64,000 nucleotides of DNA from Bacilli bacterium (lineage in GTDB: Bacteria; Bacillota_I; Bacilli_A; RFN20; CAG-826): contig DAOKYO010000001.1 of assembly GCA_035326105.1 (NCBI GenBank), forward strand, positions 395,805 to 459,804, written 5' to 3'. This document shows, piece after piece, positions 5,580 to 26,144 of this stretch (the first letter of the stretch is position 1; the number at the start of each line of letters is the position of its first letter). The translations under genes and the position numbers were made by a program. Under the pieces are notes generated by a model, which was given only the letters and a program-made list of their open reading frames with translations, searched no databases and had not been told where the DNA came from.

Positions 5580-5607
5580 TTGACAACGCTTACATTGGTG
5601 TTAATAT
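5580..5607 (+). promoter_or_regulatory. Sigma70-type promoter TTGACA-16nt-TAATAT upstream of the GntR gene and operon
   Basis: TTGACA at 5580-5585, TAATAT at 5602-5607, 16-nt spacer. Confidence 0.5.
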
Positions 5608-5650: not shown

Positions 5651-6382
5651 ATGGAAGATTTTTTAGCCCCTAAGTATTACTTATTAAAAAAGGAAATTGT
5701 TCATCAAATTGACAACGAAGTTTTTAAAGACGGCGAATTAATTCCCAGCGAGCGCGAATTGGTCCAAAAGTATGGTGTCTCGCGTATTACCGTTCGTCGG
5801 GCCATCGATGAATTGGTCAGTGAAGGTTACCTATATCGCGTTCAAGGCAAGGGTACCTTTGTTAAAAGTAATTTACTTGAGCAAAACATAATAACCCTTA
5901 ATAGCATTACGCAAGACATTATTGCGATGAATAAGAAACCGCGCCGTATTGTCAATCGTGTGGAAATTGCTCCTTCGTTTCCGAAGCGAACAAAAGAGTT
6001 AGAGATAAATCCTAATGACAAGTTAATCATTATCGATCGTTTGTATTTAGGTGATGATGAACCGGTTACTCGAACAATATCCTATATTCCGTATAAATAT
6101 TTTCCGGGATTAGAAAAGTATGATTTTGTCAAAAATTCCTTATTTGAAGTCCTTGAGAAAGATTATGGAGTAAAGATTACCCGTGGTCTAAGAACAATTG
6201 AAGCAATAAATCCGCCTGAAGGCGTGGCCGAGATGCTTCAAATTAAAAAACAACCAGTGATTCTATTTAGAGGAACAACCTATGCCTTAGTTAATGGCAA
6301 AGAAGTGCCAATTGAATCATTTAAATCTTATTATCGGTCTGACAATCGGCGATTCTCAATTAGCCAAGTAAAAATTGGCTGA
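5651..6382 (+). CDS. GntR family transcriptional regulator, HutC subfamily (HTH plus UTRA effector domain)
   Basis: N-terminal SERELVQKYGVSRITVRRAIDELVSEGYLYRVQGKGTFV is a GntR winged helix; the C-terminal ~150 aa are UTRA-like. Confidence 0.85.
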   Translation: MEDFLAPKYYLLKKEIVHQIDNEVFKDGELIPSERELVQKYGVSRITVRRAIDELVSEGYLYRVQGKGTFVKSNLLEQNIITLNSITQDIIAMNKKPRRIVNRVEIAPSFPKRTKELEINPNDKLIIIDRLYLGDDEPVTRTISYIPYKYFPGLEKYDFVKNSLFEVLEKDYGVKITRGLRTIEAINPPEGVAEMLQIKKQPVILFRGTTYALVNGKEVPIESFKSYYRSDNRRFSISQVKIG

Positions 6383-6417
6383 AACATATACACTGTTTCA
6401 TCACGAAAGGAGAAAGT

Positions 6418-7569
6418 ATGAAAAAAAAGTGGATGTTGTCGATGTCGATGTTGTTGCCGTTGATGCTTGCCGGATGTGGAGGTGGCAATTCATCTACTAA
6501 AGTGGGGTTAATTGTATCCGCGGCGGGAGCCAATGATAACGGGTACAATCAGTCGGCGATTGCGGGTTTGACTAAGGCGGCGAGTGATTTCAATATCTCG
6601 CAAAAAGTTGTTAACAGTGCCGATGACGTGCCGGGTTCATTGGAAGCTTTGGCTGAAGATGGTTATAAACTTATCTTCTCCCTCGAGTACAATTTCGATG
6701 CCTTAATTACCAATGATGGTTCGGGCAAATCAATTGCGGAGAAGTATCCGGATACGACTTTCGTCGTCTTCAATGCTTTCGCTAATACGGATAGCACGGG
6801 AGTTCGGGTTCATGACAACGTAGTTGAAGTGTTGTTTAACATTGCCCAGTCATCATTCTTAGCCGGAGCACTGGCGGTTATGGTCAATGAGGCGAACGAT
6901 GTCTTATTTACCTCGGATGATTACCATTTTACCCCAGTAAATCAATATCGGGGTGTAGGTTTCATCGGCGGAACGCAATCAGATGGAATTACCGTCTTCG
7001 GCAATGGATTTGCCCAAGGCGCCAACTACGCCGCCCAAGACGCCGATGTGAATTACAATCTATATCAAACATATAGTGCCGGATTTGGGGCTTCAACGGA
7101 AAACTACAATACTATTGCCTCCTATTATGACGCCGGTGTCAATGTCGTGTTTGCGGCGGCAGGTGGCGTTTCAACAAATATGAAAAATGCCGCTAGTAAT
7201 AAGGGAAAACTTTCAATTGATGTTGATGCCAATCAAGACGCCTCCGTTCCTGGATATGTTTTAACCAGCGTGCTTAAAAACACCGAAGTAGCAGTCTATG
7301 ACTTAGTCGGAAAATTCTTGGACAATAAACTCACCGAGAAAGATTATTACTATGATCTTGACAGCGGAGCGACCGGGATTACCGATTTAGCCACGATTTC
7401 CAGTTATATTGATACGTCAGAAACGGCACAAGCCAAATGGACGGAGATTAAAGACAAAATTGAAGATATTAAAGATGATATCGCCGACGGAACGATTACG
7501 GTTGTCGATTCTCAAAAAGGTGAGACATTGGATTTTTCAACTTTGCATAATATTACGAAAGCCAACTAG
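6418..7569 (+). CDS. BMP family (PnrA/Med-like) ABC transporter substrate-binding lipoprotein, nucleoside-binding type
   Basis: Signal peptide plus lipobox LMLAGCGG; ~380 aa; followed by a tandem-ATPase ABC subunit and two permeases, the typical bmpA-nupABC layout; RBS AAGGAG. Confidence 0.8.
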   Translation: MKKKWMLSMSMLLPLMLAGCGGGNSSTKVGLIVSAAGANDNGYNQSAIAGLTKAASDFNISQKVVNSADDVPGSLEALAEDGYKLIFSLEYNFDALITNDGSGKSIAEKYPDTTFVVFNAFANTDSTGVRVHDNVVEVLFNIAQSSFLAGALAVMVNEANDVLFTSDDYHFTPVNQYRGVGFIGGTQSDGITVFGNGFAQGANYAAQDADVNYNLYQTYSAGFGASTENYNTIASYYDAGVNVVFAAAGGVSTNMKNAASNKGKLSIDVDANQDASVPGYVLTSVLKNTEVAVYDLVGKFLDNKLTEKDYYYDLDSGATGITDLATISSYIDTSETAQAKWTEIKDKIEDIKDDIADGTITVVDSQKGETLDFSTLHNITKAN

Positions 7570-7600
7570 TCGTTAAAATTTTTAAGGAAGTTATATTAAC

Positions 7601-9190
7601 ATGGATATCATCAAGACGATAAATTTAACCAAAGAATTCGGTCCCCTCGTAGCTAACGATCACATTAATCTCACCGTTAAGGATAATGAGGTTAAGGCAA
7701 TTGTCGGTGAAAATGGGGCCGGAAAATCCACGTTAATGAACATGCTTTATGGTTTGATTAAGCCGACGAGCGGAGAGATTTATGTCGAAAACGAACTAGT
7801 CACTCTCCGCTCGCCAAATGATGCCATTAGTCGCGGAATCGGGATGGTGCACCAACATTTTAAGTTGGTGCCCAGCCTGACCGTTTTTGAAAATATTCTT
7901 TTAGGAGTCGAAATTAATAAAGAAGTGACAGTTGGTAAAAAGAGAATTCGATTACCGGGTATTAATCGTCACAAGGAACTTGAAGTTGTAAAAAATCTCA
8001 TCGATAAGTATGAGTTAAATATAAATCCGGATGAAGAGGTCAAGAAACTTTCCATCGGAGCCAAACAAAAAGTCGAAATTTTAAAGATGCTTTATCGGCA
8101 AGTTAAAATTCTAATTTTTGATGAACCAACGGCGGTTTTAACTCCGCAGGAAATACTTGTTTTTTACACGATGCTCAGAAACTTAAAAGCCAAAGGGACC
8201 ACAATTATCTTGATTACCCATAAGTTGCAGGAAGTAATCGACATTTCCGATTCAGTCACAGTGATTAAAAAAGGAAAAGTGGTTGCAAATTTAGCCACTA
8301 AAGATACGACGAAAAAACAATTAGCTCAACTGATGGTGGGGCGCGATGTCCTTTTAAACGTCAGCAAGACCTATGCGGATTATCAAAAGCAAGAATCGGT
8401 TTATCGATTGGAACATGTATCGACAATTAATCGCAGCGGAGTGGAAGTGGTATCCGATGTTAGCCTAAATCTCCATCGGGGCGAAATTGTCGGCATAGCC
8501 GGGGTTGAAGGAAATGGACAGAGTGAACTCTTGGATCTAATGAGTGGACTTTTGCAATCAACCCAAGGAAAAATCTTTCTTCATAATCAAGATATTACCA
8601 ACGTCCTGCCGGAAAAATTAAGAAAAAAACACATGGCCTTTATTCCCGAAGATCGTTACGAACAGGGTTTATGCCGTGATATGACGATCTGTGACAACAT
8701 GATTGCCGGCTATCACGATAGCGATGATATTTGCCATATGGGTTTTATCTCGGCAAAAAAGAAAATGGATAAAGCCGAACATTTAGCTTCAAAATATGAC
8801 ATTCGCCTTAATTCATTAAAAGACAATATTTCTTCTCTTTCCGGCGGTAATGCGCAAAAAGTAATTATTGCGCGAGAATTTGCTTCCGATCCGGATATTT
8901 TGATTGCCGCTCAACCGACAAGAGGCGTGGATATCGGAGCGATTGAGTACATTCATAAGAGTCTGCTTGATCTACAAAATCACGGGAAATCAATCCTTTT
9001 GGTTTCAAGCGAACTATCGGAAATAATGTCATTGAGCGATCGGATATTAGTCATGTACAAAGGACGAATTATCGGCCAGTTGGATGCAAAGAATGCCTCC
9101 CGAGAAGAAGTTGGGTATTTGATGATGGGAATTATTGATAGTAAAGAAGGAGGTAGCGAGCATGAAGGTCAAAATGTTATCGATGAGTAA
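7601..9190 (+). CDS. ABC transporter ATP-binding protein with two tandem ATPase cassettes (nucleoside/sugar type)
   Basis: Two Walker A motifs (GENGAGKST and GVEGNGQSE), two LSxGxxQK signatures, and FDEPT and IAAQPT Walker B regions; 529 aa. Confidence 0.85.
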   Translation: MDIIKTINLTKEFGPLVANDHINLTVKDNEVKAIVGENGAGKSTLMNMLYGLIKPTSGEIYVENELVTLRSPNDAISRGIGMVHQHFKLVPSLTVFENILLGVEINKEVTVGKKRIRLPGINRHKELEVVKNLIDKYELNINPDEEVKKLSIGAKQKVEILKMLYRQVKILIFDEPTAVLTPQEILVFYTMLRNLKAKGTTIILITHKLQEVIDISDSVTVIKKGKVVANLATKDTTKKQLAQLMVGRDVLLNVSKTYADYQKQESVYRLEHVSTINRSGVEVVSDVSLNLHRGEIVGIAGVEGNGQSELLDLMSGLLQSTQGKIFLHNQDITNVLPEKLRKKHMAFIPEDRYEQGLCRDMTICDNMIAGYHDSDDICHMGFISAKKKMDKAEHLASKYDIRLNSLKDNISSLSGGNAQKVIIAREFASDPDILIAAQPTRGVDIGAIEYIHKSLLDLQNHGKSILLVSSELSEIMSLSDRILVMYKGRIIGQLDAKNASREEVGYLMMGIIDSKEGGSEHEGQNVIDE

Positions 9191-10274
9191 AGAGAAATGG
9201 ACTAAGCTCGGATATGGGACTTTAAACGCTATTATCCCGATTATTATCGCTTTCCTTTTAGGAGCAGTGGCCATTTTGTTAGCTCAAGAAAATCCGTTGT
9301 TGGCCTATGGTACCATTTTCTATCGTTCGTTTTTAAAGTGGGACGGATTCTTAAAAACTCTTCACTATGCGGCGCCATTGATTTTATCGGGCTTGGCAAT
9401 TGCCTTTAGTTTTAAGGCCGGTCTATTCAATATGGGAATTGAAGGGCAAATTATATCAGCCGGCTTTGTCGTGGCTATTTTTGGCAACAAGCTGGCTTTT
9501 CTTCCTCCGATAATTCTCATTCCTTTATTGCTTATTATCGGAACCATTACAGGGGTAATAATGGCCATCATTCCCGCCATTTTAAAAGCGAAGTACAACG
9601 TTAATGAAATGGTTGTTACTTTACTCTTAAATTATGCGATTGCATTAATTCTTGAATATCTTACCTCAAATATTTTCCGTGACCCCGGAAGCGGATATGT
9701 TTCCACACCAATGATTGGCAACAATGCAATATTCACCCGTATCGGTGATAGCAAGCTAACTGTTTTCTTCTTTATCGTCCTGGCAGTATTTGTTCTGTTT
9801 TACTTTATTATGAATCACAGCAAGTTGGGATTTGAGATAACTGCCTTAGGAAAAAACAGAAGTTTCGCTGAAGCCACTGGCATGAATATTCAAAAGAAAA
9901 TCATCGTCATTATGCTGACCAGCGGAGCATTGGCGGGTTTGGCGGGGGCGGGCTGGATGATGTCGGAAAAATTCTCCTATACTTTATCTTTTTCCGGAAC
10001 GGCAGGCTTAGGCTGGGAAGGAATGCTTATTGCCCTTTTAGGAAATCATAGCCCGTTGGGGATATTGGTGGCGGCGATATTTTACTCCGTATTAAAAACG
10101 GGTTCTTCCAGCGTAGCCATATTTACAAACGTTCCCTCGGAAATTGTCTTGCTCATTCAAGCTTTGATTGTTTTGATGCTTTCGCTTAAAACCTTTGTCA
10201 AACCGCGCGTAAACACAAAGGAAACCCACTTTAAAAAAGAAAAGGTCAGAGACGAAAGAAAGGCGGAAAAGTAA
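9162..10274 (+). CDS. ABC transporter permease (BMP/nucleoside system, first permease)
   Basis: Multi-TM hydrophobic protein. Start moved to ATG 9162 (MKVKM...), which is preceded by GAAGGAGG; the ORF-track start 9135 overlaps the ATPase gene. Confidence 0.75.
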   Translation: MKVKMLSMSKEKWTKLGYGTLNAIIPIIIAFLLGAVAILLAQENPLLAYGTIFYRSFLKWDGFLKTLHYAAPLILSGLAIAFSFKAGLFNMGIEGQIISAGFVVAIFGNKLAFLPPIILIPLLLIIGTITGVIMAIIPAILKAKYNVNEMVVTLLLNYAIALILEYLTSNIFRDPGSGYVSTPMIGNNAIFTRIGDSKLTVFFFIVLAVFVLFYFIMNHSKLGFEITALGKNRSFAEATGMNIQKKIIVIMLTSGALAGLAGAGWMMSEKFSYTLSFSGTAGLGWEGMLIALLGNHSPLGILVAAIFYSVLKTGSSSVAIFTNVPSEIVLLIQALIVLMLSLKTFVKPRVNTKETHFKKEKVRDERKAEK

Positions 10275-10275
10275 C

Positions 10276-11193
10276 ATGGATTTTATAATTAAAATTTTGT
10301 TTGATTCGCTATATTTTAGTGGACCGATTATCCTTATTGCTCTCGGAGGCCTTTTTGCTTATAAAGCCGGTATCGTAAATATCGGTTTGGATGGTTTTAT
10401 GCTTTTTGGAGCACTAGCTTCAACCTTAATTCTTTACTTTACGAAGAGTTGGGCTTTAGCCTTACTTGGCGGTATTGTAATCGGCATTTTGCTGGGAGTA
10501 TTATTCTCCTTCTTCGGAGTAACGAAAAAAGCAAATTTTATTATCACCGGTTTTGCAATCGGTCTGTTATCGACCGCCGCCGGCAAATACGCTCTAGCGC
10601 TTATGCACGACACCTCAATCAATGTCATTGGCATTCTATCGACGGGGGCCAGTCGATTAAATATTCCGCTAATCGAAGATATTCCTTTTATTGGCCCAAT
10701 TATCTCAGGCCATACTTATCTCACATATTTCGCCTATATCAGTATCTTCCTTGTCGGCTTCATTATGAAGAAAACAAAGTTTGGAACTTATGTTCGTGTG
10801 GTAGGTGAATCGGAGGAAGCCGCACGGTCAGTCGGAATCAACATTAACCGCATAAAGTACTTAGCGGTCATTATCGGCGGAATTTTTACCGCTCTAGCCG
10901 GGTATGAAGTAGCTATTGTGCAACTGTCGTCGTACACAACGGATATTACCGCCGGTATGGGCTTCATCGCTTTAGCGGCGATATATTGTGGTGACGGTGA
11001 CCCGGGAAAGGTTTCGATATATGCAATTCTATTTGGAGTTGCGCAGGCACTATCGGTCAATCTTGCTATTCGAATCGGCAGTATTGCGGGGTTATTGAAA
11101 ATCATTCCTTATATCACTATCGTCATCGTGCTCTTCGTTGTTGCCTTAATTAAAAATCGGAAAAGCTTATATCGGGGGTTTATTTATGAATAA
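10276..11193 (+). CDS. ABC transporter permease (BMP/nucleoside system, second permease)
   Basis: 305-aa polytopic membrane protein immediately after the first permease. Confidence 0.75.
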   Translation: MDFIIKILFDSLYFSGPIILIALGGLFAYKAGIVNIGLDGFMLFGALASTLILYFTKSWALALLGGIVIGILLGVLFSFFGVTKKANFIITGFAIGLLSTAAGKYALALMHDTSINVIGILSTGASRLNIPLIEDIPFIGPIISGHTYLTYFAYISIFLVGFIMKKTKFGTYVRVVGESEEAARSVGININRIKYLAVIIGGIFTALAGYEVAIVQLSSYTTDITAGMGFIALAAIYCGDGDPGKVSIYAILFGVAQALSVNLAIRIGSIAGLLKIIPYITIVIVLFVVALIKNRKSLYRGFIYE

Positions 11194-11752
11194 GAAGTAT
11201 GCGCTAATTGTGGTTGATATGGTATACGATTTTACTAATCCCAATGGTAAAATCTTCTATCCCTTAAATGTCGACTTATTGCCTAAAATTAAGGATTTCA
11301 TTGCCGAAGTCAGAAAATATGGGGTTCAAATCATTTATATGCAACACTCAGTAACAAAGAGAATGCTTGAAGAGTCTCCGAAGAAAACGAGAGAATGTTG
11401 CTTGGTCGGTACCAAGGGTGAACAGATTGACGAGCGTTTAGAAATCCGACCCGAGGATTTGGTAATTAAAAAACATAAGTACAGTTCATTTTTTGAGACC
11501 GGGCTTGATCAAGAATTAAAGAGTCGCGGAATTGACCATATTATCGTTGCGGGAACAAAAACGAACAACTGTGTTTTTGCTACAGTTTTAGATGCGTATA
11601 ATCTCAACTATCACGCGTTTGTTCCAAAAGAATTAGTAGGCACTACCGATTATGAAACTAATGGCGTATACCTTCGGGATATGGGCAAATACCTATGTGA
11701 AGTAATGAGTGACCGGGAGATTATTGCTCATCTTCAGGAAGGGATACTATGA
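11186..11752 (+). CDS. Isochorismatase-family cysteine hydrolase (nicotinamidase/PncA-like)
   Basis: ALIVVDMVYDF (catalytic Asp region), conserved Lys, and IVAGTKTNNCVFAT (G-x-x-T-x-x-C-V nucleophile motif). Confidence 0.7.
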   Translation: MNKKYALIVVDMVYDFTNPNGKIFYPLNVDLLPKIKDFIAEVRKYGVQIIYMQHSVTKRMLEESPKKTRECCLVGTKGEQIDERLEIRPEDLVIKKHKYSSFFETGLDQELKSRGIDHIIVAGTKTNNCVFATVLDAYNLNYHAFVPKELVGTTDYETNGVYLRDMGKYLCEVMSDREIIAHLQEGIL

Positions 11753-12702
11753 AAAAATACGATGTCATCATCAGTGGATATATTGCTTTTGATCGGGTGA
11801 TTAAAATTGCCAGTCTCGCTAAAATCGGCAAAACTTCAATCATCACCAATAATGATAATAATGTTATCGAGTTTGGCGGTTGCGGAATTAACGTGGCCGT
11901 TGATCTGGCGACGCTTGGCTATAAAACACTCCCGGTTATCCGTGTGGGCGATGACTATGAAAGCAGTGGTTTTGCTTATTTTGTTAAAAATCACCGCTTA
12001 AGCGAAGCTGCCATTAAAAAAGTAACCGGTGTAAATTGCAGTTCCTGTTATTTGGTTGAAAACCCAAGTATGGATCACATCACGCTATATTATCCGGGTT
12101 CGATGGATGAAAAGTACTTTCTTAGTTACGATGAAGATTGGTTTAAGGAAAGCAAATTCGCCCTTATGACAGTAGCCAGCCGAAAGGATAATGAAGCATT
12201 TCTCGCGCTGACAGGCAAATACCATTTACCCACCTATTTTGGGATGAAAATGGATAAAACGGCTTTTCCTCCAGCCTTTCTTCGCAAAGTTTTAAAACGA
12301 GTCAGCGGTGTTTTTGCTAATAAGGTAGAAATCACTTATATTAAGCAAATTCTTCATATCGAACATACCAATCAAATGTTTTCTTTTAATAGCAATTTGC
12401 AATTTGTTGTTGTCACTAATGGTAAAAAAGGAAGCACTATTTATTATCGTAACGACAATAAGATTGAAAAAGCTACGATTGGAATTGTCCCGGCGGATGA
12501 ATTTGTCTCTACGGTTGGTTCGGGCGACGCTTATATGGCAGGCTTTATTTATGGATTAATCAAAGAGAAGGATTACTTACAATCGGCGAAGCTTGGGGCC
12601 ACATTGGCGACTTGTATTATTGAGGGGGTCGGAGCTACAAGCTCGGCTCCAGATGAAAAGCAATTGTGGGAACGGTATTATCGTTTCTTTGGAAAGGAAT
12701 AA
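11749..12702 (+). CDS. PfkB-family carbohydrate/nucleoside kinase (ribokinase-like)
   Basis: C-terminal GSGDAYMAGFIYGL matches the PfkB DTxGAGD anion-hole motif; the start is translationally coupled to the preceding gene. Confidence 0.75.
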   Translation: MKKYDVIISGYIAFDRVIKIASLAKIGKTSIITNNDNNVIEFGGCGINVAVDLATLGYKTLPVIRVGDDYESSGFAYFVKNHRLSEAAIKKVTGVNCSSCYLVENPSMDHITLYYPGSMDEKYFLSYDEDWFKESKFALMTVASRKDNEAFLALTGKYHLPTYFGMKMDKTAFPPAFLRKVLKRVSGVFANKVEITYIKQILHIEHTNQMFSFNSNLQFVVVTNGKKGSTIYYRNDNKIEKATIGIVPADEFVSTVGSGDAYMAGFIYGLIKEKDYLQSAKLGATLATCIIEGVGATSSAPDEKQLWERYYRFFGKE

Positions 12703-12705
12703 ATT

Positions 12706-13470
12706 ATGCAACCGACACTCTATTTAAAAGTTACCGACCAAAGTGTAGCTCCATATGTGATTTTTTCCGGCGATCCCTGGCGGGTGGAAGTCCTAAAAAG
12801 TTACCTTGACAATCCTCAAAGCGTTGGTTTTTATCGGGAATTCAATACTTATACCGGCACCTATAAAGGCTTGCCCATCACGATTACTTCCACCGGAATT
12901 GGCGCGCCTTCGGCCGTAATTGCCCTCGAAGAAATGTTCGATGCCGGGATGAAAGTGGCTTTACGAATGGGAACAGCAATGTCGCTGAGTAAAGCGGATT
13001 TGGGAAATTACATTATTCCCGCTTCTTCGAAAAGATTAGAGAAAACAAGCCTTACCTATGTTGATGAAAATTATCCGGCGAAAGCCGATCCAAAGTTTCT
13101 TCAGTCCATCATCAAAACCGTAACAAGCGCAGGGCAAAAAGTCATCACTGGCGAAAGTGCGACCATGGATGGATATTATTCGCAAATGAAGGAATCTCGA
13201 CTTTCAAAAATACGGCGAGTGGACATTGAAAGGAACTTTACGCAGTTAGAACAAGAAGGCATTATCTCGGTCGACATGGAAACATCTGCACTGATGGTAG
13301 TTGCCTCGCTTATGAAAGTGCCGTTTGCCTCATTGACCTTAGTCACAGTTTTGAAAAATCTCGCCGCCTTATTGGATGAAAAAACACGGAGGCGAAAAGA
13401 AGATGAACTTTGTCGGTTGGCGCTAGATTCGATGGTTAATTTTGTGAAGGAGGAAAAAATAAATGAATGA
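12706..13470 (+). CDS. Nucleoside phosphorylase, PNP/UDP family 1 (DeoD/Udp-like)
   Basis: FSGDPWRVEVL...YTGTYKGLPITITSTGIGAPSAVIALEEM and VDMETSAL align with DeoD/Udp core motifs. Confidence 0.75.
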   Translation: MQPTLYLKVTDQSVAPYVIFSGDPWRVEVLKSYLDNPQSVGFYREFNTYTGTYKGLPITITSTGIGAPSAVIALEEMFDAGMKVALRMGTAMSLSKADLGNYIIPASSKRLEKTSLTYVDENYPAKADPKFLQSIIKTVTSAGQKVITGESATMDGYYSQMKESRLSKIRRVDIERNFTQLEQEGIISVDMETSALMVVASLMKVPFASLTLVTVLKNLAALLDEKTRRRKEDELCRLALDSMVNFVKEEKINE

Positions 13471-14248
13471 TTTTTTTAAGAAATATCCAAAGACGATAAT
13501 TGGTATGGTCCATTGTTTGCCTTTGCCAGGGACAGCCCGTTATTCCGATTTAAATCAAGTGCGTAAACAGGCTTTAGCCGATGCACTTACGCTTCAAAAA
13601 GCGGGTTATGATGCGATTATGATTGAAAATATGGGCGACGCTCCATATGCCGAAAAAATGGATTTAGCCCAAATCACAGCGATGAGTGCAATCGCCGAGA
13701 TGATAAAAGAGGCGGTTGATCTTCCTTTAGGAATTGATTGTGCTTTCAGTGATTATCGCAGTGCTTTAGCCATTGCTAAGGCAGTCGGAGCAGATTTCAT
13801 TCGCATTCCCGTTTTTATCGATACGGTGGTCTACGCTAATGGCATTATCTATCCTTCGGCGCACGATGCCTTAATTTATCGGCGGGAAATTGACGCTGAA
13901 AAAGTGCTGATTATGGCTGACCTACAGGTTAAGCACACCCATATGCTCGTTAATGATATGAGTATTGAAGAATCGGCTAAACTAGCAGAAGCAAGCGGAG
14001 CCGATGCCGTAGTTGTAACGGGTGTTTTGACGGGTAAGCCAACTTCAATTGAAGATATTGAGCAGGTCAAAAAAGCCGTTACGGTTCCAGTTTATGTTGG
14101 CTCGGGTGTGAGTGTTAAAAACATTAAAGATCAATTGAGTATTGCCAGTGGCGTTATCGTTGGCAGTTCTCTAAAAGACAAAGGCAAAGTTAGTTTACCG
14201 GTTGATTTCGATTTAGCCAAAGAGCTAATTGAAGCATATAAGAAATAG
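13463..14248 (+). CDS. BtpA/SgcQ family TIM-barrel protein (function unknown)
   Basis: N-terminal KTIIGMVHCLPLPGTARYS matches the BtpA/SgcQ family signature. Confidence 0.55.
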   Translation: MNDFFKKYPKTIIGMVHCLPLPGTARYSDLNQVRKQALADALTLQKAGYDAIMIENMGDAPYAEKMDLAQITAMSAIAEMIKEAVDLPLGIDCAFSDYRSALAIAKAVGADFIRIPVFIDTVVYANGIIYPSAHDALIYRREIDAEKVLIMADLQVKHTHMLVNDMSIEESAKLAEASGADAVVVTGVLTGKPTSIEDIEQVKKAVTVPVYVGSGVSVKNIKDQLSIASGVIVGSSLKDKGKVSLPVDFDLAKELIEAYKK

Positions 14249-14260
14249 GAGGAGAAGAAT

Positions 14261-14992
14261 ATGCGTTTAATTTGTTTTCTTAATCATGGCTCGCCTTCAA
14301 TTGAAGCCAGCCATCGCGTCGTCGATTGTTATGTTGAGGGTGGAGCGGATGTAGTCGAGACGGATTTTCCAGCAGATGATCCCTATCTTGACGGAGACAA
14401 CATCAAAATTCGGATGCATGAAGCATTAACAAAATGCCACGATTATGACAAATACATGAAGTCGGTAGAGACCATTTTGAAGGAGCATCCAGGAATTCAT
14501 CTTTATATGTTGATTTATGAAGAAACGATTATGGCAATTGGTATGGAGAAATTTCTGGCTTTCTTAAGAAGAAATAATTTACAGGAAGTGTTGCTGGTTG
14601 GAGCGCGGCATCCGGAAGTTCGGGCTCGGCTTTTAAAAGAAAAATTAAAAGTCAGTGCCTACATCGAATACCATTTGCCCGAAGATGAGATTGAAACAGC
14701 CAAGCAAACAACGGGGTTTGTTTACCTGCAGGCGACACCATCTGGCAAATTCCATTCTCAATATAAAGATCTTAAGTCAATTATCAAGTACCTGCGCGAA
14801 GAACGGGGTATTTCCAATGAAATCAACTGCGGTATCGGAATTCATGACTATGATCAAGTTAGAATGGTTCGTGACGCCGGAGCGGATGGAGTGTTTATCG
14901 GCACGCAGGTTATGAACCTGCATGGACAACCGGAAAAGCTTATTGCCAAGGTCAAAGAACTAAAGGCAATCGCCAGCGGTCAAGTAAAGTAG
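14261..14992 (+). CDS. Tryptophan synthase alpha-subunit (TrpA) homolog, stand-alone paralog in a nucleoside operon
   Basis: Alignable with E. coli TrpA across the barrel: GGADVVETDFPADDPYLDGDNIK vs [23 protein letters not shown], with catalytic Glu and Asp equivalents conserved; CGIGIHDYDQVRMVRDAGADGVFIG vs [24 protein letters not shown]. No trpB adjacent. Confidence 0.6.
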   Translation: MRLICFLNHGSPSIEASHRVVDCYVEGGADVVETDFPADDPYLDGDNIKIRMHEALTKCHDYDKYMKSVETILKEHPGIHLYMLIYEETIMAIGMEKFLAFLRRNNLQEVLLVGARHPEVRARLLKEKLKVSAYIEYHLPEDEIETAKQTTGFVYLQATPSGKFHSQYKDLKSIIKYLREERGISNEINCGIGIHDYDQVRMVRDAGADGVFIGTQVMNLHGQPEKLIAKVKELKAIASGQVK

Positions 14993-15001
14993 TTCCCCCA
15001 A

Positions 15002-15033
15002 ATAGACACAGTTCCCCATGTGTCTATTTTTTT
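15002..15033 (+). terminator. Rho-independent terminator (ATAGACACA-8nt loop-TGTGTCTAT plus U-tract)
   Basis: Perfect 9-bp stem followed by TTTTTTT directly after the stop of 14261..14992. Confidence 0.7.
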
Positions 15034-15144
15034 ATGTCAACAAAAAAAACGACGTTTGGTGTAAGCGGTTTTAGGCATAAAAATATGATTGTTATCTCTT
15101 GATTTATTTAAACGAAACTATAATTGGAACAACGGGAGGGTTAT

Positions 15145-16584
15145 ATGCTCAAAGTAACAAAAAGAATATTTCTATTTTCTATTTTACTTCTGGCAAGTTG
15201 TGCCCAAACGGGAGGTTCTTCCTCTAACTCTATAGCTAGTACTGGTAGTGAATCGTCCGCGAGTGAAACAAATTCATCTGGAAGTTCTTCAGTTTTTATT
15301 CCATCATCTTCATCCGAGGATATGGAGTATTTGCCATCGGGGGCGGAAGATTATTTCTTGCCCATTCCTTCAGGCGATGATTTCGATGCTGTCTGTGATA
15401 ATATACAACAATATATTAATCTTCTGGATGCTCATCTATTTAATATGGATACGAGTTTTACAATTGCCTATTCGTTCGTCGACAGTGGATCAAGCGCACG
15501 TTACGACTATTCTTCTTTATGGAATATTAACTTAGATGTCGATTTTAAAACGACACCCCGCGCCGGAAAATATATCGACACTTATACCATTGACTATCGA
15601 GATTATGGGATTCAAAATCAAGGAACGGAATTAAATGCAACCGAAACCTTAAGTGTTGTTGACGATATTTTCCTAAATCGCGGAGAAAAGCGAAATGCGG
15701 GGTTTAGTGATTTTCCGATTAATGCACGGGAACATAGCATTTCTGTTTCCACCAGTGAACAACTTTGGTATGCGGCCAGCAGGGGATACCTACCGGTTCC
15801 GGTCGCCGGATCAAAAGCGGAAGCAATTTATGACGAAGCTTTGGACATTGCGCGAGAATATATCTCTAACGATGATGACGATGTCGAAAAGGAAAGGAAA
15901 ATCTTTGCCTGGTTGGGTAACGATATTCTCTACGATTACACCGCCTATGAGAAAGGTTATAGTGGTGTCGGTTATCAATATCAAAATGACTGCTATTATT
16001 TAGAGGGCATTTTTAATCGCCACATCGCCGTTTGCGACGGGATGTCGAAGGCGCTTGTCTTATTGTCATCAATTGAAAATATCCCCGCGGTACGGGTAAC
16101 GGGATACGTTATCGCCAGTGGCCAAGGAGCCGGACACGCATGGAACTATGTCCAATTAGGTGGCGAATGGTATGCGGCTTGTCCAACAAGCAACAACACG
16201 ATGGGAGAAGTAAGTGATACGCTTTATGAATTAGGGAACAAGGAATTATTCTTGGTTTCTAATGCAACAATCGATGCTGTTTATAAACAGACGAGCTTCC
16301 CCTTAGCCAAGGCCGATTCGGATTATGGTTTCTATGCTAATACGACGATTGAATACAATGATTTCACTCATAATCTAGTGGCTAAAAATGCTTCCGATGT
16401 TGTGAAGTTCACTCAATTACTCGCTGATTATCCTTCAATTAACGATGAAAAGAAAGTAATGAACTTTCAATATGCGGATGGTCTGGATATCAATGCCGCT
16501 ATCGCTCAAGCACGGAGTGAGACCGGACTAAACTTTGGCGGTTTTATCGGTTCTGATAACGAACTAATATTAATCACACTCTAA
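15145..16584 (+). CDS. Transglutaminase-like (Cys-His-Asp) domain lipoprotein
   Basis: Lipobox LLASCAQ; CDGMSKAL ... GHAWNYV core of the transglutaminase-like cysteine peptidase fold. Start set to ATG 15145 after GGGAGGG, not the TTG at 15124. Confidence 0.65.
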   Translation: MLKVTKRIFLFSILLLASCAQTGGSSSNSIASTGSESSASETNSSGSSSVFIPSSSSEDMEYLPSGAEDYFLPIPSGDDFDAVCDNIQQYINLLDAHLFNMDTSFTIAYSFVDSGSSARYDYSSLWNINLDVDFKTTPRAGKYIDTYTIDYRDYGIQNQGTELNATETLSVVDDIFLNRGEKRNAGFSDFPINAREHSISVSTSEQLWYAASRGYLPVPVAGSKAEAIYDEALDIAREYISNDDDDVEKERKIFAWLGNDILYDYTAYEKGYSGVGYQYQNDCYYLEGIFNRHIAVCDGMSKALVLLSSIENIPAVRVTGYVIASGQGAGHAWNYVQLGGEWYAACPTSNNTMGEVSDTLYELGNKELFLVSNATIDAVYKQTSFPLAKADSDYGFYANTTIEYNDFTHNLVAKNASDVVKFTQLLADYPSINDEKKVMNFQYADGLDINAAIAQARSETGLNFGGFIGSDNELILITL

Positions 16585-16604
16585 TCATCGATTAAATAAG
16601 ACTA

Positions 16605-16642
16605 AACTTCCGGCACCTTAAAATGCTTAGGAAGTTTTTTTT
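16605..16642 (+). terminator. Rho-independent terminator (AACTTCC...GGAAGTT plus T8)
   Basis: 7-bp stem, 18-nt loop, then TTTTTTTT after the stop at 16584. Confidence 0.6.
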
Positions 16643-16795
16643 ATGAAAGGCGGTTTTTAATGACTAAAAAATAATAGGGCGATTACTCTTTGCTTATATT
16701 TAGCAGACTATTTATTAATATGGGATATTTATGAGCGTTTTTTAAACCTTTTTACGTCACTATTTTATAATGAAACTGAAATAAAAGGAGTCATT

Positions 16796-18451
16796 ATGAG
16801 AATTGTTATTATTGGTGCGGTGGCAGGGGGGACCTCGGCCGCGGCAAAAGCCAGAAGAGAAAACGAAACTGCCGATATTGTGGTGTATGAGAAAGATCAA
16901 CACATTTCCTATGCGGGATGCGGGATGCCGTATTATCTTGGAAAACAAGTTGCCGAGGAAGAGGAATTAGCTCCGCGCGATGCCGATTACTTTAAAAAGA
17001 AGTACAACATTGATATTTATACCGAACATGAAGTCATTGATTTGGACGTAGAAAAAAAGGAAGTTATGATTATCGATCTTAAGACAAAAGCTACTTTTGC
17101 CGAACACTACGATAAATTAATTATTGCGACCGGAGCTCGGTCTTCTGTACCACCGATTAAGGGACGTGAACACGCTAATGTTTTTACCTTAAGAACGATA
17201 AAAGATATGGAAAACATTGAAGCGTTTATCGACAATAAATCCCCAAAGACAGCCGCGATTATTGGAACCGGCTTCATTGGCTTAGAGGTGGCGGAAAATT
17301 TAACCCGTCTTGGTATTAAAGTTACTTTGATTGAAAAGATGCCGCAGGTTTCACCATCGTTAGACAGCGACATGGCGATCCTTGTTCAAGATGAATTAAC
17401 GAAAAACGGAGTACGGGTTCTCGTCAATCAAAACATTCAAGAAATAACCGATAATGGAGTTGTTTTAGAAGGTGATGAATTTATAAATGGGGATTTAGTT
17501 TTAATCGCAACCGGTGTTCGGCCGAATGTAGATTTAGCCCGCAGTTCCGGAATTGAAATAGGGGTGACCGGAGCGATTGCCGTTAATGATAGAATGGAAA
17601 CCAGTGTGACGGATATATATGCGGTCGGTGATTGTATGGAAGAGTATCACGCTCTTACCGGAAAGCCGGTTTATCGGCCGATGGGATCAACGGCTAATAA
17701 GACGGGACGTATCGCCGGTAATAATGCTGCTGGTGGGCCAGTACTGACTTTTAAAGGAGTGATTGGAACAGCGATATATAAAGTTTTTAACCTAGCGGTC
17801 GCCCAGACCGGTTTAACTGAAAAAGAACTTATTAAAGAAAACATACCCTATCAAGTAAGTTTTAATATTAAACCGGAGAAACCAGAGTATTTGGGCGGTC
17901 AAGAAATGGTTATGAAAGTTATTGCTCGCAAGGATAATTTGCAGATTTTAGGAGCGGAAATTATTGGAACTTCGGGAGTTGACAAGAGAATCGACGTTTT
18001 AGCCACAGCGATTTCTTTTAAAGCCACGGCAAGCGATTTGGCAGCTCTGGATTTAGCCTATGCTCCTCCCTTTTCAACGGCCAAGGATCCGATTATATAT
18101 AGCGGAATGATTCTTGAGAACTCCATTTTATATGGACGTAAACAAATGACGGCTCACGAGGTCGATAATTTATCGCAAAACAGCTCGTCAGACGTTGTGA
18201 TTCTCGATAATCGCCGTCCAGAATTATTCCGTGCGGGGCATATTCCAGGGGCAATCAATGTCGCGCAGGAAGATATGAGAGACTATCTTCAAAATCTGGA
18301 TAAAAAAGCCACAATCCTTACCTATTGCTCCAAAGGAGTGACGGCCAACGCCACTCAAAACATTCTTATTAATCACGGATTTGAAAACGTGTATAGTCTA
18401 AATGGCGGATATTCCACTTTTGCGAATTACCAAAGAATTAACAAAAAGTAG
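16796..18451 (+). CDS. CoA-disulfide reductase / NADH oxidase family flavoprotein fused to a C-terminal rhodanese domain (CoADR-RHD type)
   Basis: N-terminal GAVAGG FAD motif, redox Cys in SYAGCGMPY, second NAD(P) GxGxxG (GTGFIG); C-terminal ~100-aa rhodanese with YCSKGVTANA active-site loop. Confidence 0.8.
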   Translation: MRIVIIGAVAGGTSAAAKARRENETADIVVYEKDQHISYAGCGMPYYLGKQVAEEEELAPRDADYFKKKYNIDIYTEHEVIDLDVEKKEVMIIDLKTKATFAEHYDKLIIATGARSSVPPIKGREHANVFTLRTIKDMENIEAFIDNKSPKTAAIIGTGFIGLEVAENLTRLGIKVTLIEKMPQVSPSLDSDMAILVQDELTKNGVRVLVNQNIQEITDNGVVLEGDEFINGDLVLIATGVRPNVDLARSSGIEIGVTGAIAVNDRMETSVTDIYAVGDCMEEYHALTGKPVYRPMGSTANKTGRIAGNNAAGGPVLTFKGVIGTAIYKVFNLAVAQTGLTEKELIKENIPYQVSFNIKPEKPEYLGGQEMVMKVIARKDNLQILGAEIIGTSGVDKRIDVLATAISFKATASDLAALDLAYAPPFSTAKDPIIYSGMILENSILYGRKQMTAHEVDNLSQNSSSDVVILDNRRPELFRAGHIPGAINVAQEDMRDYLQNLDKKATILTYCSKGVTANATQNILINHGFENVYSLNGGYSTFANYQRINKK

Positions 18452-18499
18452 ATTTTAACCGCCTCTATGCGCACATTAAAAAGAAACAAATTTGAGATG

Positions 18500-18541
18500 A
18501 GACCCAAATGTTAGACCAACTAACAGGAGGGTCTTTTTTTA
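18500..18541 (+). terminator. Rho-independent terminator after the CoADR-RHD gene
   Basis: AGACCC...GGGTCT (or inner AGACC/GGTCT) stem followed by TTTTTTT. Confidence 0.6.
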
Positions 18542-18616
18542 CTGCATAAAGCAATTGTTGTATGCGATTGATAACTTTATGGGTTAAATGATAATTTGAA
18601 TAAAAAAGTCACTTTT

Positions 18617-18645
18617 TTGGCAAAAAAGCCATTTTGATATATACT
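18617..18645 (+). promoter_or_regulatory. Sigma70-type promoter TTGGCA-17nt-TATACT
   Basis: Good -35/-10 match in the 450-nt AT-rich intergenic region upstream of the uORF and GNAT gene. Confidence 0.45.
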
Positions 18646-18683
18646 ATATATAATTATATGAATACGTTAGTAGAGGAGGAGAT

Positions 18684-18734
18684 ATGATATATAAATGTTT
18701 TTTTATTATGCGGCAAAGGGATAAAAAAAGTTAG
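18684..18734 (+). CDS. 16-codon upstream ORF (MIYKCFFIMRQRDKKS), candidate leader peptide
   Basis: Strong SD AGAGGAGGAG 4-6 nt before the ATG; followed by a 9-bp hairpin at 18761..18786; lies in the leader of the GNAT gene. Confidence 0.3.
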   Translation: MIYKCFFIMRQRDKKS

Positions 18735-18916
18735 TTTTGCGGGCATAAGTGATTTTAAAAAATGAAAACTTGAAAATGTTTTCATTCGGGGGAAGCGGAT
18801 ACTATATTGAGTTGATATTTTTGTATGAATTAACTAGTTGCTCAATGTACAACTTCTAGCCAATCGGCATAAAGAGTCACGACAAATTCTTCATTAAAAG
18901 AATGGAGAGTGAAATA

Positions 18917-19360
18917 ATGATTCGAAGAATTTTAAAGAAAGATCGCAATGATTACTTTGCGATGTCAAAAAGTTTTTATACGTCAAAAGCCCTTATCGAG
19001 CCAAAGGATCCCAAGCATTTAGAATCGACATTTGTTCAACTGATTGAGAGCAATCCTTTATTGGAAGGTTACGTCTACGAAATAAATGGTAAAGTGGCTA
19101 GTTATATGCTTTTGACCTTCTCCTACTCAAATGAATTAGGAGGAGAGATGATTACTATTGATGAACTATATATTAAACCGGAATATCAAAGGCGAGGTAT
19201 TGCTAGTAAAATGATTGAATTTGTGGAAAAACAGTTTCCCCATCATCGAGCAATTTCTTTACTTGTAAATATGGATAATATACAGGCAAAAGCAGTTTAT
19301 ATGCATAAGGGTTTCCGCCCAGTAGATTATATGCCGATGATTAAAATGAATTTGTCGTGA
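18917..19360 (+). CDS. GNAT family N-acetyltransferase
   Basis: YIKPEYQRRGIASKMI acetyl-CoA binding motif (Q/RxxGxG/A). Start ATG 18917 (MIRRIL) preferred over 18902. Confidence 0.7.
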   Translation: MIRRILKKDRNDYFAMSKSFYTSKALIEPKDPKHLESTFVQLIESNPLLEGYVYEINGKVASYMLLTFSYSNELGGEMITIDELYIKPEYQRRGIASKMIEFVEKQFPHHRAISLLVNMDNIQAKAVYMHKGFRPVDYMPMIKMNLS

Positions 19361-19363
19361 TAG

Positions 19364-19386
19364 GAGCGGCCTGACCGCTCTTTTTT
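19364..19386. terminator. Terminator hairpin GAGCGG-CCTGA-CCGCTC plus T6 between convergent genes
   Basis: Perfect 6-bp GC-rich stem with a T-run on the plus strand; the stop codon of the minus-strand gene lies inside the T-run. Confidence 0.65.
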
Positions 19387-20080
19387 ATATTTTAAAAGAA
19401 TCAGCAGGAAGTTTTCGATAATCAAAAAGAAGAATAAAACTAACAATTAGCGGAATAGAACTGATCATGATGGCTTTTACATCAAGCCATTGAATAAAGT
19501 AATAAGCAATCACCGCGCCGATAACAAAAATAAGGACGATAAGAAAATAAATAAACCCCTCATTTAATGATTTTTTACTTTTGGTAAACCCATAGTCGCA
19601 AAAGGACTGGGTGGCGCTTCTTAAATTGCCGATACACATGGTGGTGGCAATGCCGGTCCCATTGACTTTGCGGAAACTCTCCACCTGTTCGCCACAGGCA
19701 AAAGAAATCAAACTATTGGCAATTAAATTTTCACTTTTAGGAATGAACGCGACTCCAATAAGAATTATTATTTCAATTAAAAGCGTCAGCTGGCGCCAAT
19801 GAAAATGGTCGCTGTTTTTGAACGCGTGGCGTATTATCTCGGATAGAGCGATGCCGAGGGCAAAAGCCAATATTGGAAACAGGTAGTGCGTGGCAATCGA
19901 GAAGTTACCAGTCGATAAATTTATTCCGAGCAAAAGAAGGTTTCCCGTCTGCGCGTTGGCAAAGACGTGGTCGCGAACTAGATATGAATAAGCATCCATA
20001 AATCCGCCCGAGAGGGTTAAGAAAATAGCGACGATCAACGATTCTGATATTTGCCGGCGGTTGCCAATTGCATTTTCCAT
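19385..20080 (-). CDS. YoaK/DUF1275 family membrane protein
   Basis: GGFMDAYSYL...FANAQTGNLLLL, signature of the DUF1275 (YoaK) family; 6 predicted TM segments. Confidence 0.7.
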   Translation of the reverse strand: MENAIGNRRQISESLIVAIFLTLSGGFMDAYSYLVRDHVFANAQTGNLLLLGINLSTGNFSIATHYLFPILAFALGIALSEIIRHAFKNSDHFHWRQLTLLIEIIILIGVAFIPKSENLIANSLISFACGEQVESFRKVNGTGIATTMCIGNLRSATQSFCDYGFTKSKKSLNEGFIYFLIVLIFVIGAVIAYYFIQWLDVKAIMISSIPLIVSFILLFDYRKLPADSFKI

Positions 20081-24357: not shown

Positions 24358-24625
24358 AACCAAATATTAAAAGACGCTGATGAAGAGAAAAGTTTTAAAT
24401 CTAAATTTAGAGAGTCCAGTCGCGGTGCAAATGGAAATTAGATTGAAACAAAATATACACTTCGGAGTCGGAGGCTGAAACTAGTAGGCACTCCCGGTAG
24501 TTGTCCGTTAAAACGACTAGAGTTGTTGGACTCGATAAGTGATGGCTATGGCCATAATTAGGGTGGTACCGCGGAATATCTGAACGATTTTCGTCCCTGT
24601 GAAAGCAAGGAGAAAATCGTTTTTT
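24358..24625 (+). promoter_or_regulatory. T-box riboswitch leader (tRNA-sensing transcription antiterminator)
   Basis: AGAGA motif at 24384-24388; F-box CCGTTA at 24505-24510; Stem III hairpin ATGGC/GCCAT at 24541-24556; canonical T-box sequence AATTAGGGTGGTACCGCGG at 24556-24574; terminator CGATTTTC...GAAAATCG plus T6 at 24585-24625 whose 5' arm can alternatively pair with the T-box sequence. Confidence 0.8.
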
Positions 24626-26116: not shown

Positions 26117-26144
26117 AGGACACACATATGCGTGTCCTTATTTT
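26117..26144. terminator. Bidirectional terminator hairpin (AGGACACAC-ATAT-GCGTGTCCT) between convergent genes
   Basis: Near-perfect 9-bp stem flanked by an A-run on the 5' side and a T-run on the 3' side. Confidence 0.6.

Follow-up and report, generated by a model that had tools for sequence, protein, structure and literature searches.

The gene studied here lies at 14261-14992 of a 64,000-nucleotide stretch of DNA (hereafter the window) from a Bacilli bacterium (contig DAOKYO010000001.1), and encodes a protein with the fold of the tryptophan synthase alpha subunit (TrpA) at the end of an operon of nucleoside-type catabolic genes. Several described systems resemble parts of this locus. Classical deo and other nucleoside operons combine a Bmp-type ATP-binding cassette (ABC) importer with cdd, pdp or deoD, deoB and deoC, and their end products are glyceraldehyde 3-phosphate (G3P) and a small aldehyde that is reduced by an alcohol dehydrogenase. 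The sgc operon of Escherichia coli contains a phosphotransferase system (PTS), the BtpA-family protein SgcQ and the SgcE epimerase, and to our knowledge includes neither a TrpA-like gene nor an iron-dependent alcohol dehydrogenase (Fe-ADH). The BtpA/SgcQ family itself has been described as a biogenesis factor of photosystem I and, in E. coli, as an orphan gene. A haloarchaeal pathway described by Sato et al. (2022, PMC9700705) converts the ribose of guanosine into dihydroxyacetone phosphate (DHAP) and ethylene glycol; its enzymes include a phosphorylase resembling uridine phosphorylase, a ribose-1-phosphate kinase of the PfkB family and a glycolaldehyde reductase of the Fe-ADH type.

No biochemical function of the BtpA family was found in the accessible literature, and no paper on a module of BtpA and TrpA-like proteins was found in a search whose coverage of subscription papers was incomplete, so that absence is not proof. 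In this study, the gene, its operon and its relatives were investigated using profile and sequence searches, structure prediction and the comparison of gene neighbourhoods. We consider it highly likely that the protein is not TrpA and that it belongs to a BtpA-linked catabolic module for sugars or nucleosides.

Relation of the protein to tryptophan synthase alpha

The open reading frame (ORF) at 14261-14992 on the plus strand has an ATG start and 243 codons plus a stop, and an AGGAGG ribosome-binding site is located 7-12 nt upstream. The Pfam family Trp_syntA (PF00290) covers residues 3-237 (88.3 bits, E 5.4e-25; cut-off 27 bits), and every significant sequence match among solved structures is TrpA or BX1 (top match 2ekc, 1.8e-16). 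An AlphaFold2 (AF2) model built on 21 family sequences reached a predicted local distance difference test score (pLDDT) of 94.9 and a predicted template modelling score (pTM) of 0.91, and its 50 best Foldseek matches in the PDB were TrpA or TrpA-like chains with TM of approximately 0.8. The whole-length alignment with TrpA described in the initial annotation is thus borne out by the Pfam match, the structure hits and the predicted fold. In the motif VVETDFPADDPYLDGD, E33 aligns with TrpA E49 and D44 with TrpA D60. A metagenome-assembled genome named 'Bacilli bacterium' (JAKVOO010000001.1) shares 97% identity with the window, and TrpA-like proteins of this kind carry the public name 'tryptophan synthase subunit alpha'.

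The protein scores below the cut-offs of the specific TrpA models, with 83.8 bits against 102.35 for TIGR00262 (the trpA equivalog) and 38 bits against 234 for NF009621. A word-indexed search of 5.8 billion proteins retrieved 22 close relatives (E <=1e-56, 41-97% identity), followed by a gap beyond which true TrpAs appeared at <=30% identity. Scanning 1.84 billion cluster representatives with a hidden Markov model retrieved 70 representatives at E <=1e-30, indicating a small and distinct subfamily. When 80 members of this subfamily were aligned with 99 TrpA sequences, an alignment size that also served for the map of the active site, pairwise identity was 34-100% (median 56%) inside the subfamily and 16-34% (median 23%) to TrpA. 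Subfamily members are 28 residues shorter by median length (240 versus 268 aa), and a median of 5 residues, compared with 25 in TrpA, precedes the equivalent of F22, so that helix alpha0 is missing.

The same alignment revealed both retained and altered positions in the active site. E33, the equivalent of TrpA E49, is invariant (80/80), and the position of D60 (residue 44) holds Glu in 64 and Asp in 16 of the 80 members, with the window protein (D44) among the Asp minority. The phosphate-binding residues G211 and G213 (beta7 G-x-G) and G234 and S235 (beta8 G-S/T) of TrpA are retained. G181, T183 and G184 of loop 6, D130 and F212 are each present in 95-99 of the 99 TrpA sequences. In the subfamily, by contrast, loop 6 varies or is deleted at these positions, an invariant Gly stands in place of D130, and Val or Ile in place of F212. 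New residues that are invariant or nearly so have been gained at D35 (Gly in TrpA), R51 (Ala), E87 (Ala/Tyr) and Q157 (Val/Leu), and the former indole pocket of the family is formed by aromatic or aliphatic residues (Y/F6, L84, Y86, I/L111, V113, Y134, Y155 and F212). No Lys is invariant among 21 family sequences and none is conserved at >=93% among 80, so the protein is not a class I (Schiff-base) aldolase and cannot work like DeoC.

To judge from these alignments, the active site appears to be remodelled around a retained phosphate site and one acid/base residue. The intact catalytic Glu and Asp of the initial annotation therefore hold in part: the E49 equivalent and the phosphate loops are kept, but the subfamily lacks D130, G181/T183/G184, F212 and helix alpha0 and shows invariant residues of its own. 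Structure prediction and active-site comparison, which had been proposed as checks, thus recovered the TrpA fold together with an active site that is only partly TrpA-like. Because hallmark residues of TrpA have been lost and new invariant ones gained, the protein at 14261-14992 is unlikely to have indole-3-glycerol-phosphate lyase activity. The label 'tryptophan synthase alpha' on these proteins is very probably a misannotation, which would falsely credit the genomes that carry them with part of the tryptophan pathway.

Organisation of the operon

The TrpA-like gene is the last of 10 genes at 5651-14992. The enzyme genes overlap or lie a few bases apart and hence make up a single transcription unit closed by a terminator. 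The features are as follows.

5580-5607, plus strand: promoter-like site preceding the GntR gene (TTGACA, 16-nt spacer, TG-TAATAT); consensus match only
5651-6382, plus strand: GntR/UTRA (HutC-type) regulator, first cassette gene (Pfam GntR and UTRA)
6418-7569, plus strand: Bmp/PnrA-family lipoprotein, substrate-binding protein of an ABC importer (Pfam Bmp, 115.7 bits)
7601-9190, plus strand: ABC ATPase with two ATP-binding domains (Pfam ABC_tran, two stretches)
9135-10274, plus strand: ABC permease 1 (Pfam BPD_transp_2); translation probably begins further downstream than at the listed TTG
10276-11193, plus strand: ABC permease 2 (Pfam BPD_transp_2)
11186-11752, plus strand: isochorismatase-family cysteine hydrolase, amidase type (Pfam Isochorismatase, 120 bits)
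11749-12702, plus strand: PfkB-family kinase (Pfam PfkB)
12706-13470, plus strand: PNP_UDP_1 nucleoside phosphorylase (Pfam; nearest to uridine phosphorylases)
13463-14248, plus strand: BtpA/SgcQ-family TIM-barrel protein (Pfam BtpA, 241 bits; TIGR00259, 234 bits)
14261-14992, plus strand: TrpA-fold protein of a distinct E-x-D type subfamily, terminal gene of the operon
15000-15037, plus strand: intrinsic terminator ending the operon (11-bp stem, 8-nt loop, T-run)

The upstream gene families and the terminator confirm that the gene closes a nucleoside-type catabolic operon. Sites matching the promoter consensus are no more frequent in the region than in shuffled sequence. The Bmp-family protein is most similar in the PDB to 7x0r 'Lbp' (E 7e-21), followed by the Borrelia proteins BmpD and BmpA and by TmpC/PnrA, so its ligand is not necessarily a canonical nucleoside. 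In the amidase, the invariant D15, K96 and C129 fit the Asp-Lys-Cys triad of the family, and the PDB neighbours are N-carbamoylsarcosine amidase, RutB and cysteine hydrolases. A reading as nicotinamidase (PncA) was tentatively set aside, since the metal-binding Asp/His residues of PncA are not evident and the nearest relatives are of the N-carbamoylsarcosine amidase and RutB types.

The phosphorylase reaches 138 bits against a cut-off of 280 for TIGR01718 (uridine phosphorylase) and matches uridine phosphorylases in the PDB at about 1e-24 to 4e-25. R26, R44, R87, T90 and M191-E192 are conserved across its family, and by analogy with E. coli uridine phosphorylase we take these to be the phosphate- and ribose-binding residues; on that analogy, we take the protein to be a genuine nucleoside phosphorylase. 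The PfkB kinase, whose best PDB match is the MJ0406 sugar kinase, falls under all NCBIfam equivalog cut-offs (67 bits for ribokinase; 43-45 bits against 330 and 500 for two ribose-1-phosphate kinase models). It keeps the ribokinase-like residues D15, G43-G44, N48, N191/E194 (N-x-x-E), G257, G259 and D260, and these residues imply that it would phosphorylate the 5-OH of a ribofuranosyl compound.

A horizontal-transfer island was considered and rejected, as the operon shows no compositional anomaly. Upstream of the operon, two ORFs (88-1572 and 1646-3148) of approximately 500 aa that match no Pfam family are followed by an alpha-L-rhamnosidase-like protein (3138-5399).

Conservation of the cassette across genomes

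The first three relatives that were looked up showed the same gene order as the window. A scan of one genome per prokaryotic species then detected 182 relatives, of which the best 80 loci were kept, and the genes were counted by tblastn and by ORF clustering, with agreeing results, in the 72 loci whose sequence extends 9.5 kb or more upstream of the TrpA-like gene. The canonical cassette comprises GntR, the Bmp-ABC importer, the isochorismatase-like amidase, PfkB, the PNP/UDP phosphorylase, BtpA, Fe-ADH and the TrpA-like protein, with the following occurrence.

PNP phosphorylase: 72/72 loci
Bmp binding protein: 72/72 loci
Amidase: 71/72 loci
PfkB kinase: 71/72 loci
BtpA: 71/72 loci
Fe-ADH: 69/72 loci
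GntR: 68/72 loci

The Fe-ADH gene is located between the BtpA and TrpA-like genes in more distant relatives. The three complete loci without it are exactly the clade of the window (L005-L007), where nothing in the operon takes its place. The enzyme of the nucleoside cassettes is AdhE/FucO-like and scores 29.5 bits against a cut-off of 550 with the model of the haloarchaeal enzyme, and is not an ortholog. In 18 loci of Lachnospiraceae type, a glyoxalase/VOC-superfamily gene (156 aa, e.g. 10826-11296 in L078) directly follows the TrpA-like gene, which fits a pathway yielding reactive small carbonyl compounds.

The hosts belong to Bacillota, Mycoplasmatota (Izemoplasmatales and others) and Actinomycetota (Atopobiaceae, Propionicimonas and one other), with one spirochaete; Bacilli are represented, and many hosts are Clostridia (Ruminiclostridium, Coprococcus comes, Lachnoanaerobaculum orale, Robinsoniella, Lactonifactor and Roseburia). 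The cassette of 10-11 genes is strongly conserved and horizontally spread. Its carriers number at least 80 species, among them isolates cultured from gut and mouth (C. comes, L. orale, Robinsoniella and Lactonifactor) as well as Ruminiclostridium and Izemoplasma. Three of its six enzymes, namely, the TrpA-like protein, BtpA and the amidase, have no assigned reaction.

A regular-expression test, which is a weak one, detected no trpB or tryptophan-pathway signature motif in the 64-kb window, and neither trpB nor any other trp gene was found in the conserved neighbourhood of 85 related loci. The gene had been described as a stand-alone paralog lacking trpB, and the neighbourhood analysis suggested at that time agrees with this: trpB is adjacent in none of these loci, and the same BtpA-containing cassette recurs. 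These results also bear on whether the gene is simply a dispersed biosynthetic trpA whose trpB lies elsewhere in the genome, as its public name would suggest. The missed equivalog cut-off, the separate clade and the missing TrpA-specific residues and helix alpha0 contradict such a role, and the gene occupies a fixed position in a catabolic cassette in 72/72 loci from several phyla. Because the cassette is conserved, a dispersed trpA is effectively excluded, with the trpB test of this genome covering the 64-kb window, and the gene is better described as a paralog.

The module in other operons

Divergent TrpA-like proteins score 126-145 bits with the subfamily profile, above every canonical TrpA, and BtpA was nearly always adjacent where the loci were inspected; the contigs of two others are too small to reveal neighbouring genes. 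In two loci (L089, 5603-11662; L090, 1065-7124), a sigma54/PRD regulator and a mannose-family PTS (EIIA, B, C and D) are followed by BtpA, two TrpA-like genes of the Q-x-D and E-x-C types, and an Fe-ADH. With 295 bits to PRK15138, this Fe-ADH belongs to the YqhD type of aldehyde reductases, a subfamily other than that of the AdhE/FucO-like enzyme in the nucleoside cassettes. A contig from a Hadza gut metagenome (L091, 229-5995) carries PfkB, BtpA, four tandem TrpA-like genes (240-252 aa) and a GntR/UTRA regulator. In L100 (65-10717), a variant cassette contains neither phosphorylase nor Fe-ADH; its ABC importer and a pair of isochorismatase-like genes are accompanied by PfkB, BtpA and three TrpA-like genes, the first of which is separated from the other two by an MFS transporter gene. 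This variant adjoins a canonical nucleoside cassette (12545-20009), an arrangement that L101 apparently shares. L094 holds a shorter variant with one TrpA-like gene before the contig ends.

The paralogs differ in their beta2 motif, which is E-x-D in the type of the window and Q-x-D or E-x-C/S elsewhere; some paralogs (Q-x-D) lack the catalytic Glu and have degenerate G-x-G phosphate loops. One metagenomic contig (L088, 248-2140) encodes an in-frame fusion of Fe-ADH to a TrpA-like domain (630 aa), flanked by the C-terminus of an isochorismatase-like gene before it and by uxaC after it. Being known from this single contig, the fusion may be an assembly or frameshift artefact.

BtpA and TrpA-like genes are shared by PTS, PfkB and nucleoside cassettes, and the constant core of the module is therefore BtpA plus one or more TrpA-like proteins, usually with an aldehyde reductase. 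This core would act on a phosphosugar that is delivered either by a PTS or by an importer and a kinase, and the phosphorylase with the Bmp importer is its nucleoside-specific front end.

The AF2 model of BtpA is a TIM barrel (pLDDT 92.7) for which no close solved relative was detected, the best Foldseek match having E 4e-10 and TM <=0.65. NanE, RPE and TrpF are among its fold neighbours. With standard phosphate loops and invariant H17, E55, N56, D59, D97, R114, R140, D153, K157 and H158, BtpA is clearly an enzyme. Close paralogy between BtpA and the TrpA-like protein was considered and rejected; the profile-profile probability was only 27%, and the two are not specifically related.

The constant company of BtpA, present in 71/72 complete canonical loci and in most variant loci, could also mean that the TrpA-like protein assists it in a non-catalytic or regulatory role. 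The Q-x-D paralogs that lost the Glu and have degenerate phosphate loops would suit such a role, and there is a precedent in the catalytically impaired TrpA of Chlamydia, which is reported only to activate TrpB (PMC8376405). We regard this as improbable for the protein of the window, since in 80 sequences with identity down to 34% the putative catalytic Glu, four more polar residues and the whole phosphate site are invariant; an invariant polar site at such divergence is the signature of a working active site.

The downstream lyase gene

The initial annotation had suggested that the TrpA-like gene and a tryptophanase-family gene 10 kb downstream might form an indole-producing and indole-consuming pair. 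The two features concerned are listed below.

24368-24601, plus strand: T-box leader (RF00230, 99.8 bits)
24655-26106, plus strand: beta-eliminating lyase, controlled by the T-box

In the T-box, the specifier is UAC (Tyr), with A as the next nucleotide, and the bulge is UGGU. The lyase scores 438 bits with the tyrosine phenol-lyase model versus 315 and 382 bits with two tryptophanase equivalog models, and a tyrosine/tryptophan lyase gene was found in none of the 85 related loci. With a Tyr T-box, a phenol-lyase-like enzyme and no co-conservation, the proposed pair was abandoned. Induction of a lyase by tyrosine starvation suggests that the enzyme works synthetically, with phenol, pyruvate and ammonia as the substrates from which Tyr is made. 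The region beyond the lyase gene holds a PAS-GGDEF gene (26138-27037, minus strand) and a PAS-EAL gene (27524-29329).

These findings also make it very improbable that the TrpA-like protein is an indole-3-glycerol-phosphate-type lyase, or a lyase of aryl- or C-glycosides, that feeds the downstream 'tryptophanase'. The equivalents of E49 and D60 are present in the window protein and the positions of the indole pocket are still aromatic or aliphatic, which would suit such a function. However, the loop-6 residues, D130 and F212 are not conserved, new polar residues line the site, and the partner that is co-conserved with the TrpA-like gene is an aldehyde reductase rather than the lyase, which has the regulation and the affinity of a tyrosine enzyme.

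Proposed function of the TrpA-like protein

We favour the explanation that the TrpA-like protein is a sugar-phosphate C-C lyase releasing a triose phosphate and a small aldehyde, with a probability of roughly 0.45. Retro-aldol-type cleavage of a sugar-phosphate intermediate, as first proposed from the sequence, is still the best mechanistic guess. In the proposed route, the Bmp-ABC system would import a riboside, and the joint action of the PNP/UDP-type phosphorylase and the PfkB kinase on its sugar would yield a pentose derivative phosphorylated at position 5. This derivative would then be converted and split by BtpA and the TrpA-like enzyme, with BtpA supplying the cleavable isomer. The beta7 and beta8 loops of the TrpA-like enzyme would hold the terminal phosphate as TrpA holds the G3P moiety, and catalysis would depend on the retained E33 together with the family-specific D35, E87, Q157 and R51. 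Without a Lys, stabilisation of an enolate would need a metal, and the acidic cluster of E33, D35 and E87 may bind a divalent one; this metal site is conjecture, for which the Mg-dependent KGPDC/HPS barrels of the same superfamily offer an analogy.

The C-C bond would be cut three carbons from the phosphate, giving a triose phosphate (G3P or DHAP) and a small unphosphorylated aldehyde, for example glycolaldehyde or acetaldehyde, which would leave from the former indole pocket. Two versions can be envisaged. In one, an aldopentose 5-phosphate would yield G3P together with glycolaldehyde from ribose 5-phosphate or acetaldehyde from deoxyribose 5-phosphate; in the other, a ketose 1-phosphate would yield DHAP and an aldehyde. 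Fe-ADH would reduce the aldehyde, and the clade of the window presumably uses another reductase. To judge from the co-conserved aldehyde reductase, the product would be a small aliphatic aldehyde and not an aryl or C-glycosidic cleavage product. A link to aldehydes is also seen in the two Fe-ADH subfamilies (AdhE/FucO-like and YqhD-like) that have been separately recruited to the module, in the fusion and in the VOC gene.

Several points weigh against this explanation. The TrpA-like family lacks an invariant Lys. In BtpA, a Lys-His pair is invariant and acidic residues are numerous; this protein could be the aldolase, which would leave the TrpA-like protein as an isomerase or epimerase. The occurrence of 2-4 TrpA-like paralogs per cassette fits sequential isomerisation or epimerisation equally well. 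The phosphorylase and a 5-kinase would produce ribose 1,5-bisphosphate, yet no recognisable phosphatase that would remove the 1-phosphate was found among the cassette genes. The invariant amidase has no explained role in the proposed route; its presence hints that the substrates might be N-ribosyl amides or ureides and not canonical nucleosides. The operon of the window itself has no aldehyde reductase, and the fusion is a single metagenomic observation.

In the most serious rival, the TrpA-like protein would interconvert sugar phosphates as an isomerase or epimerase, with E33 and E/D44 as acid/base residues in the manner of other ribulose-phosphate-binding barrels, and BtpA, alone or jointly with it, would cleave the C-C bond. 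RPE, TrpF/HisA and NanE belong to the same superfamily, and NanE, RPE and TrpF appear among the fold neighbours of BtpA. The invariant K157-H158 and the invariant Asp, Glu and Arg residues of BtpA would suit a cleaving enzyme, and tandem paralogs with differing beta2 motifs (E-x-D, Q-x-D and E-x-C/S) are typical of successive stereochemical conversions. By contrast, the sole fusion joins the aldehyde reductase to the TrpA-like domain and not to BtpA, the closest characterised relatives (TrpA and BX1) are lyases, and the nucleoside-cassette subfamily invariably keeps the Glu by which TrpA drives retro-aldol cleavage. We regard this rival as less probable than the lyase explanation.

A broader proposal can be made, although only tentatively and with less confidence than the lyase assignment: BtpA and one or more TrpA-like proteins might form a hitherto unrecognised two-barrel module that splits phosphosugars into a triose phosphate and a small aldehyde. 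It would need neither a Schiff-base Lys nor a classical aldolase, and the breakdown of nucleoside ribose would bypass the usual enzymes of pentose-phosphate metabolism. If true, this would represent a new bacterial catabolism of nucleoside ribose or deoxyribose that is widespread in anaerobes, including Lachnospiraceae of the human gut and DNA-degrading Izemoplasmatales. Such anaerobes would ferment sugars derived from nucleic acids in a new way, possibly making ethylene glycol or ethanol. It would also provide the first enzymatic function for the BtpA/SgcQ family and an example of the TrpA scaffold recruited to catabolism.

Comparison with known systems

The TrpA-like protein shares with TrpA and the plant stand-alone indole-3-glycerol-phosphate lyases (BX1/IGL) the (beta/alpha)8 fold, the Glu49 equivalent, an acidic residue at the D60 position and the phosphate loops, but differs in its low identity (<=34%), in being 28 aa shorter and in lacking helix alpha0. 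Unlike trpA, the TrpA-like genes never adjoin trpB and are instead found nearly always beside BtpA in catabolic cassettes. The protein is apparently a new functional variant of the TrpA fold in a widespread and apparently uncharacterised catabolic module.

With the sgc operon of E. coli, the PTS-linked loci L089 and L090 have in common a BtpA-family gene in a sugar operon. Classical deo operons and the cassette share the importer family and a nucleoside phosphorylase, and the proposed end products are also alike; however, the cassette has no homologs of DeoC, DeoB or Cdd.

The haloarchaeal pathway (PMC9700705) resembles the cassette in its phosphorylase of uridine-phosphorylase type, its PfkB kinase and, in related cassettes, Fe-ADH, as well as, for the proposed route, in the logic by which ribose is turned into a triose phosphate and a reduced C2 compound. 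Its middle enzymes, namely, ribose 1,5-bisphosphate isomerase, the HAD ribulose bisphosphate phosphatase and the FucA-type class II ribulose 1-phosphate aldolase, are absent from the cassette, which has BtpA, the TrpA-like protein and the isochorismatase-like amidase in their place. The two kinases are not orthologous (45 bits against a cut-off of 330), and the operon of the window lacks the Fe-ADH reductase. Under the lyase explanation, the operon would be the functional counterpart in bacteria of the non-carboxylating pentose-bisphosphate pathway of archaea, with non-homologous enzymes in the middle.

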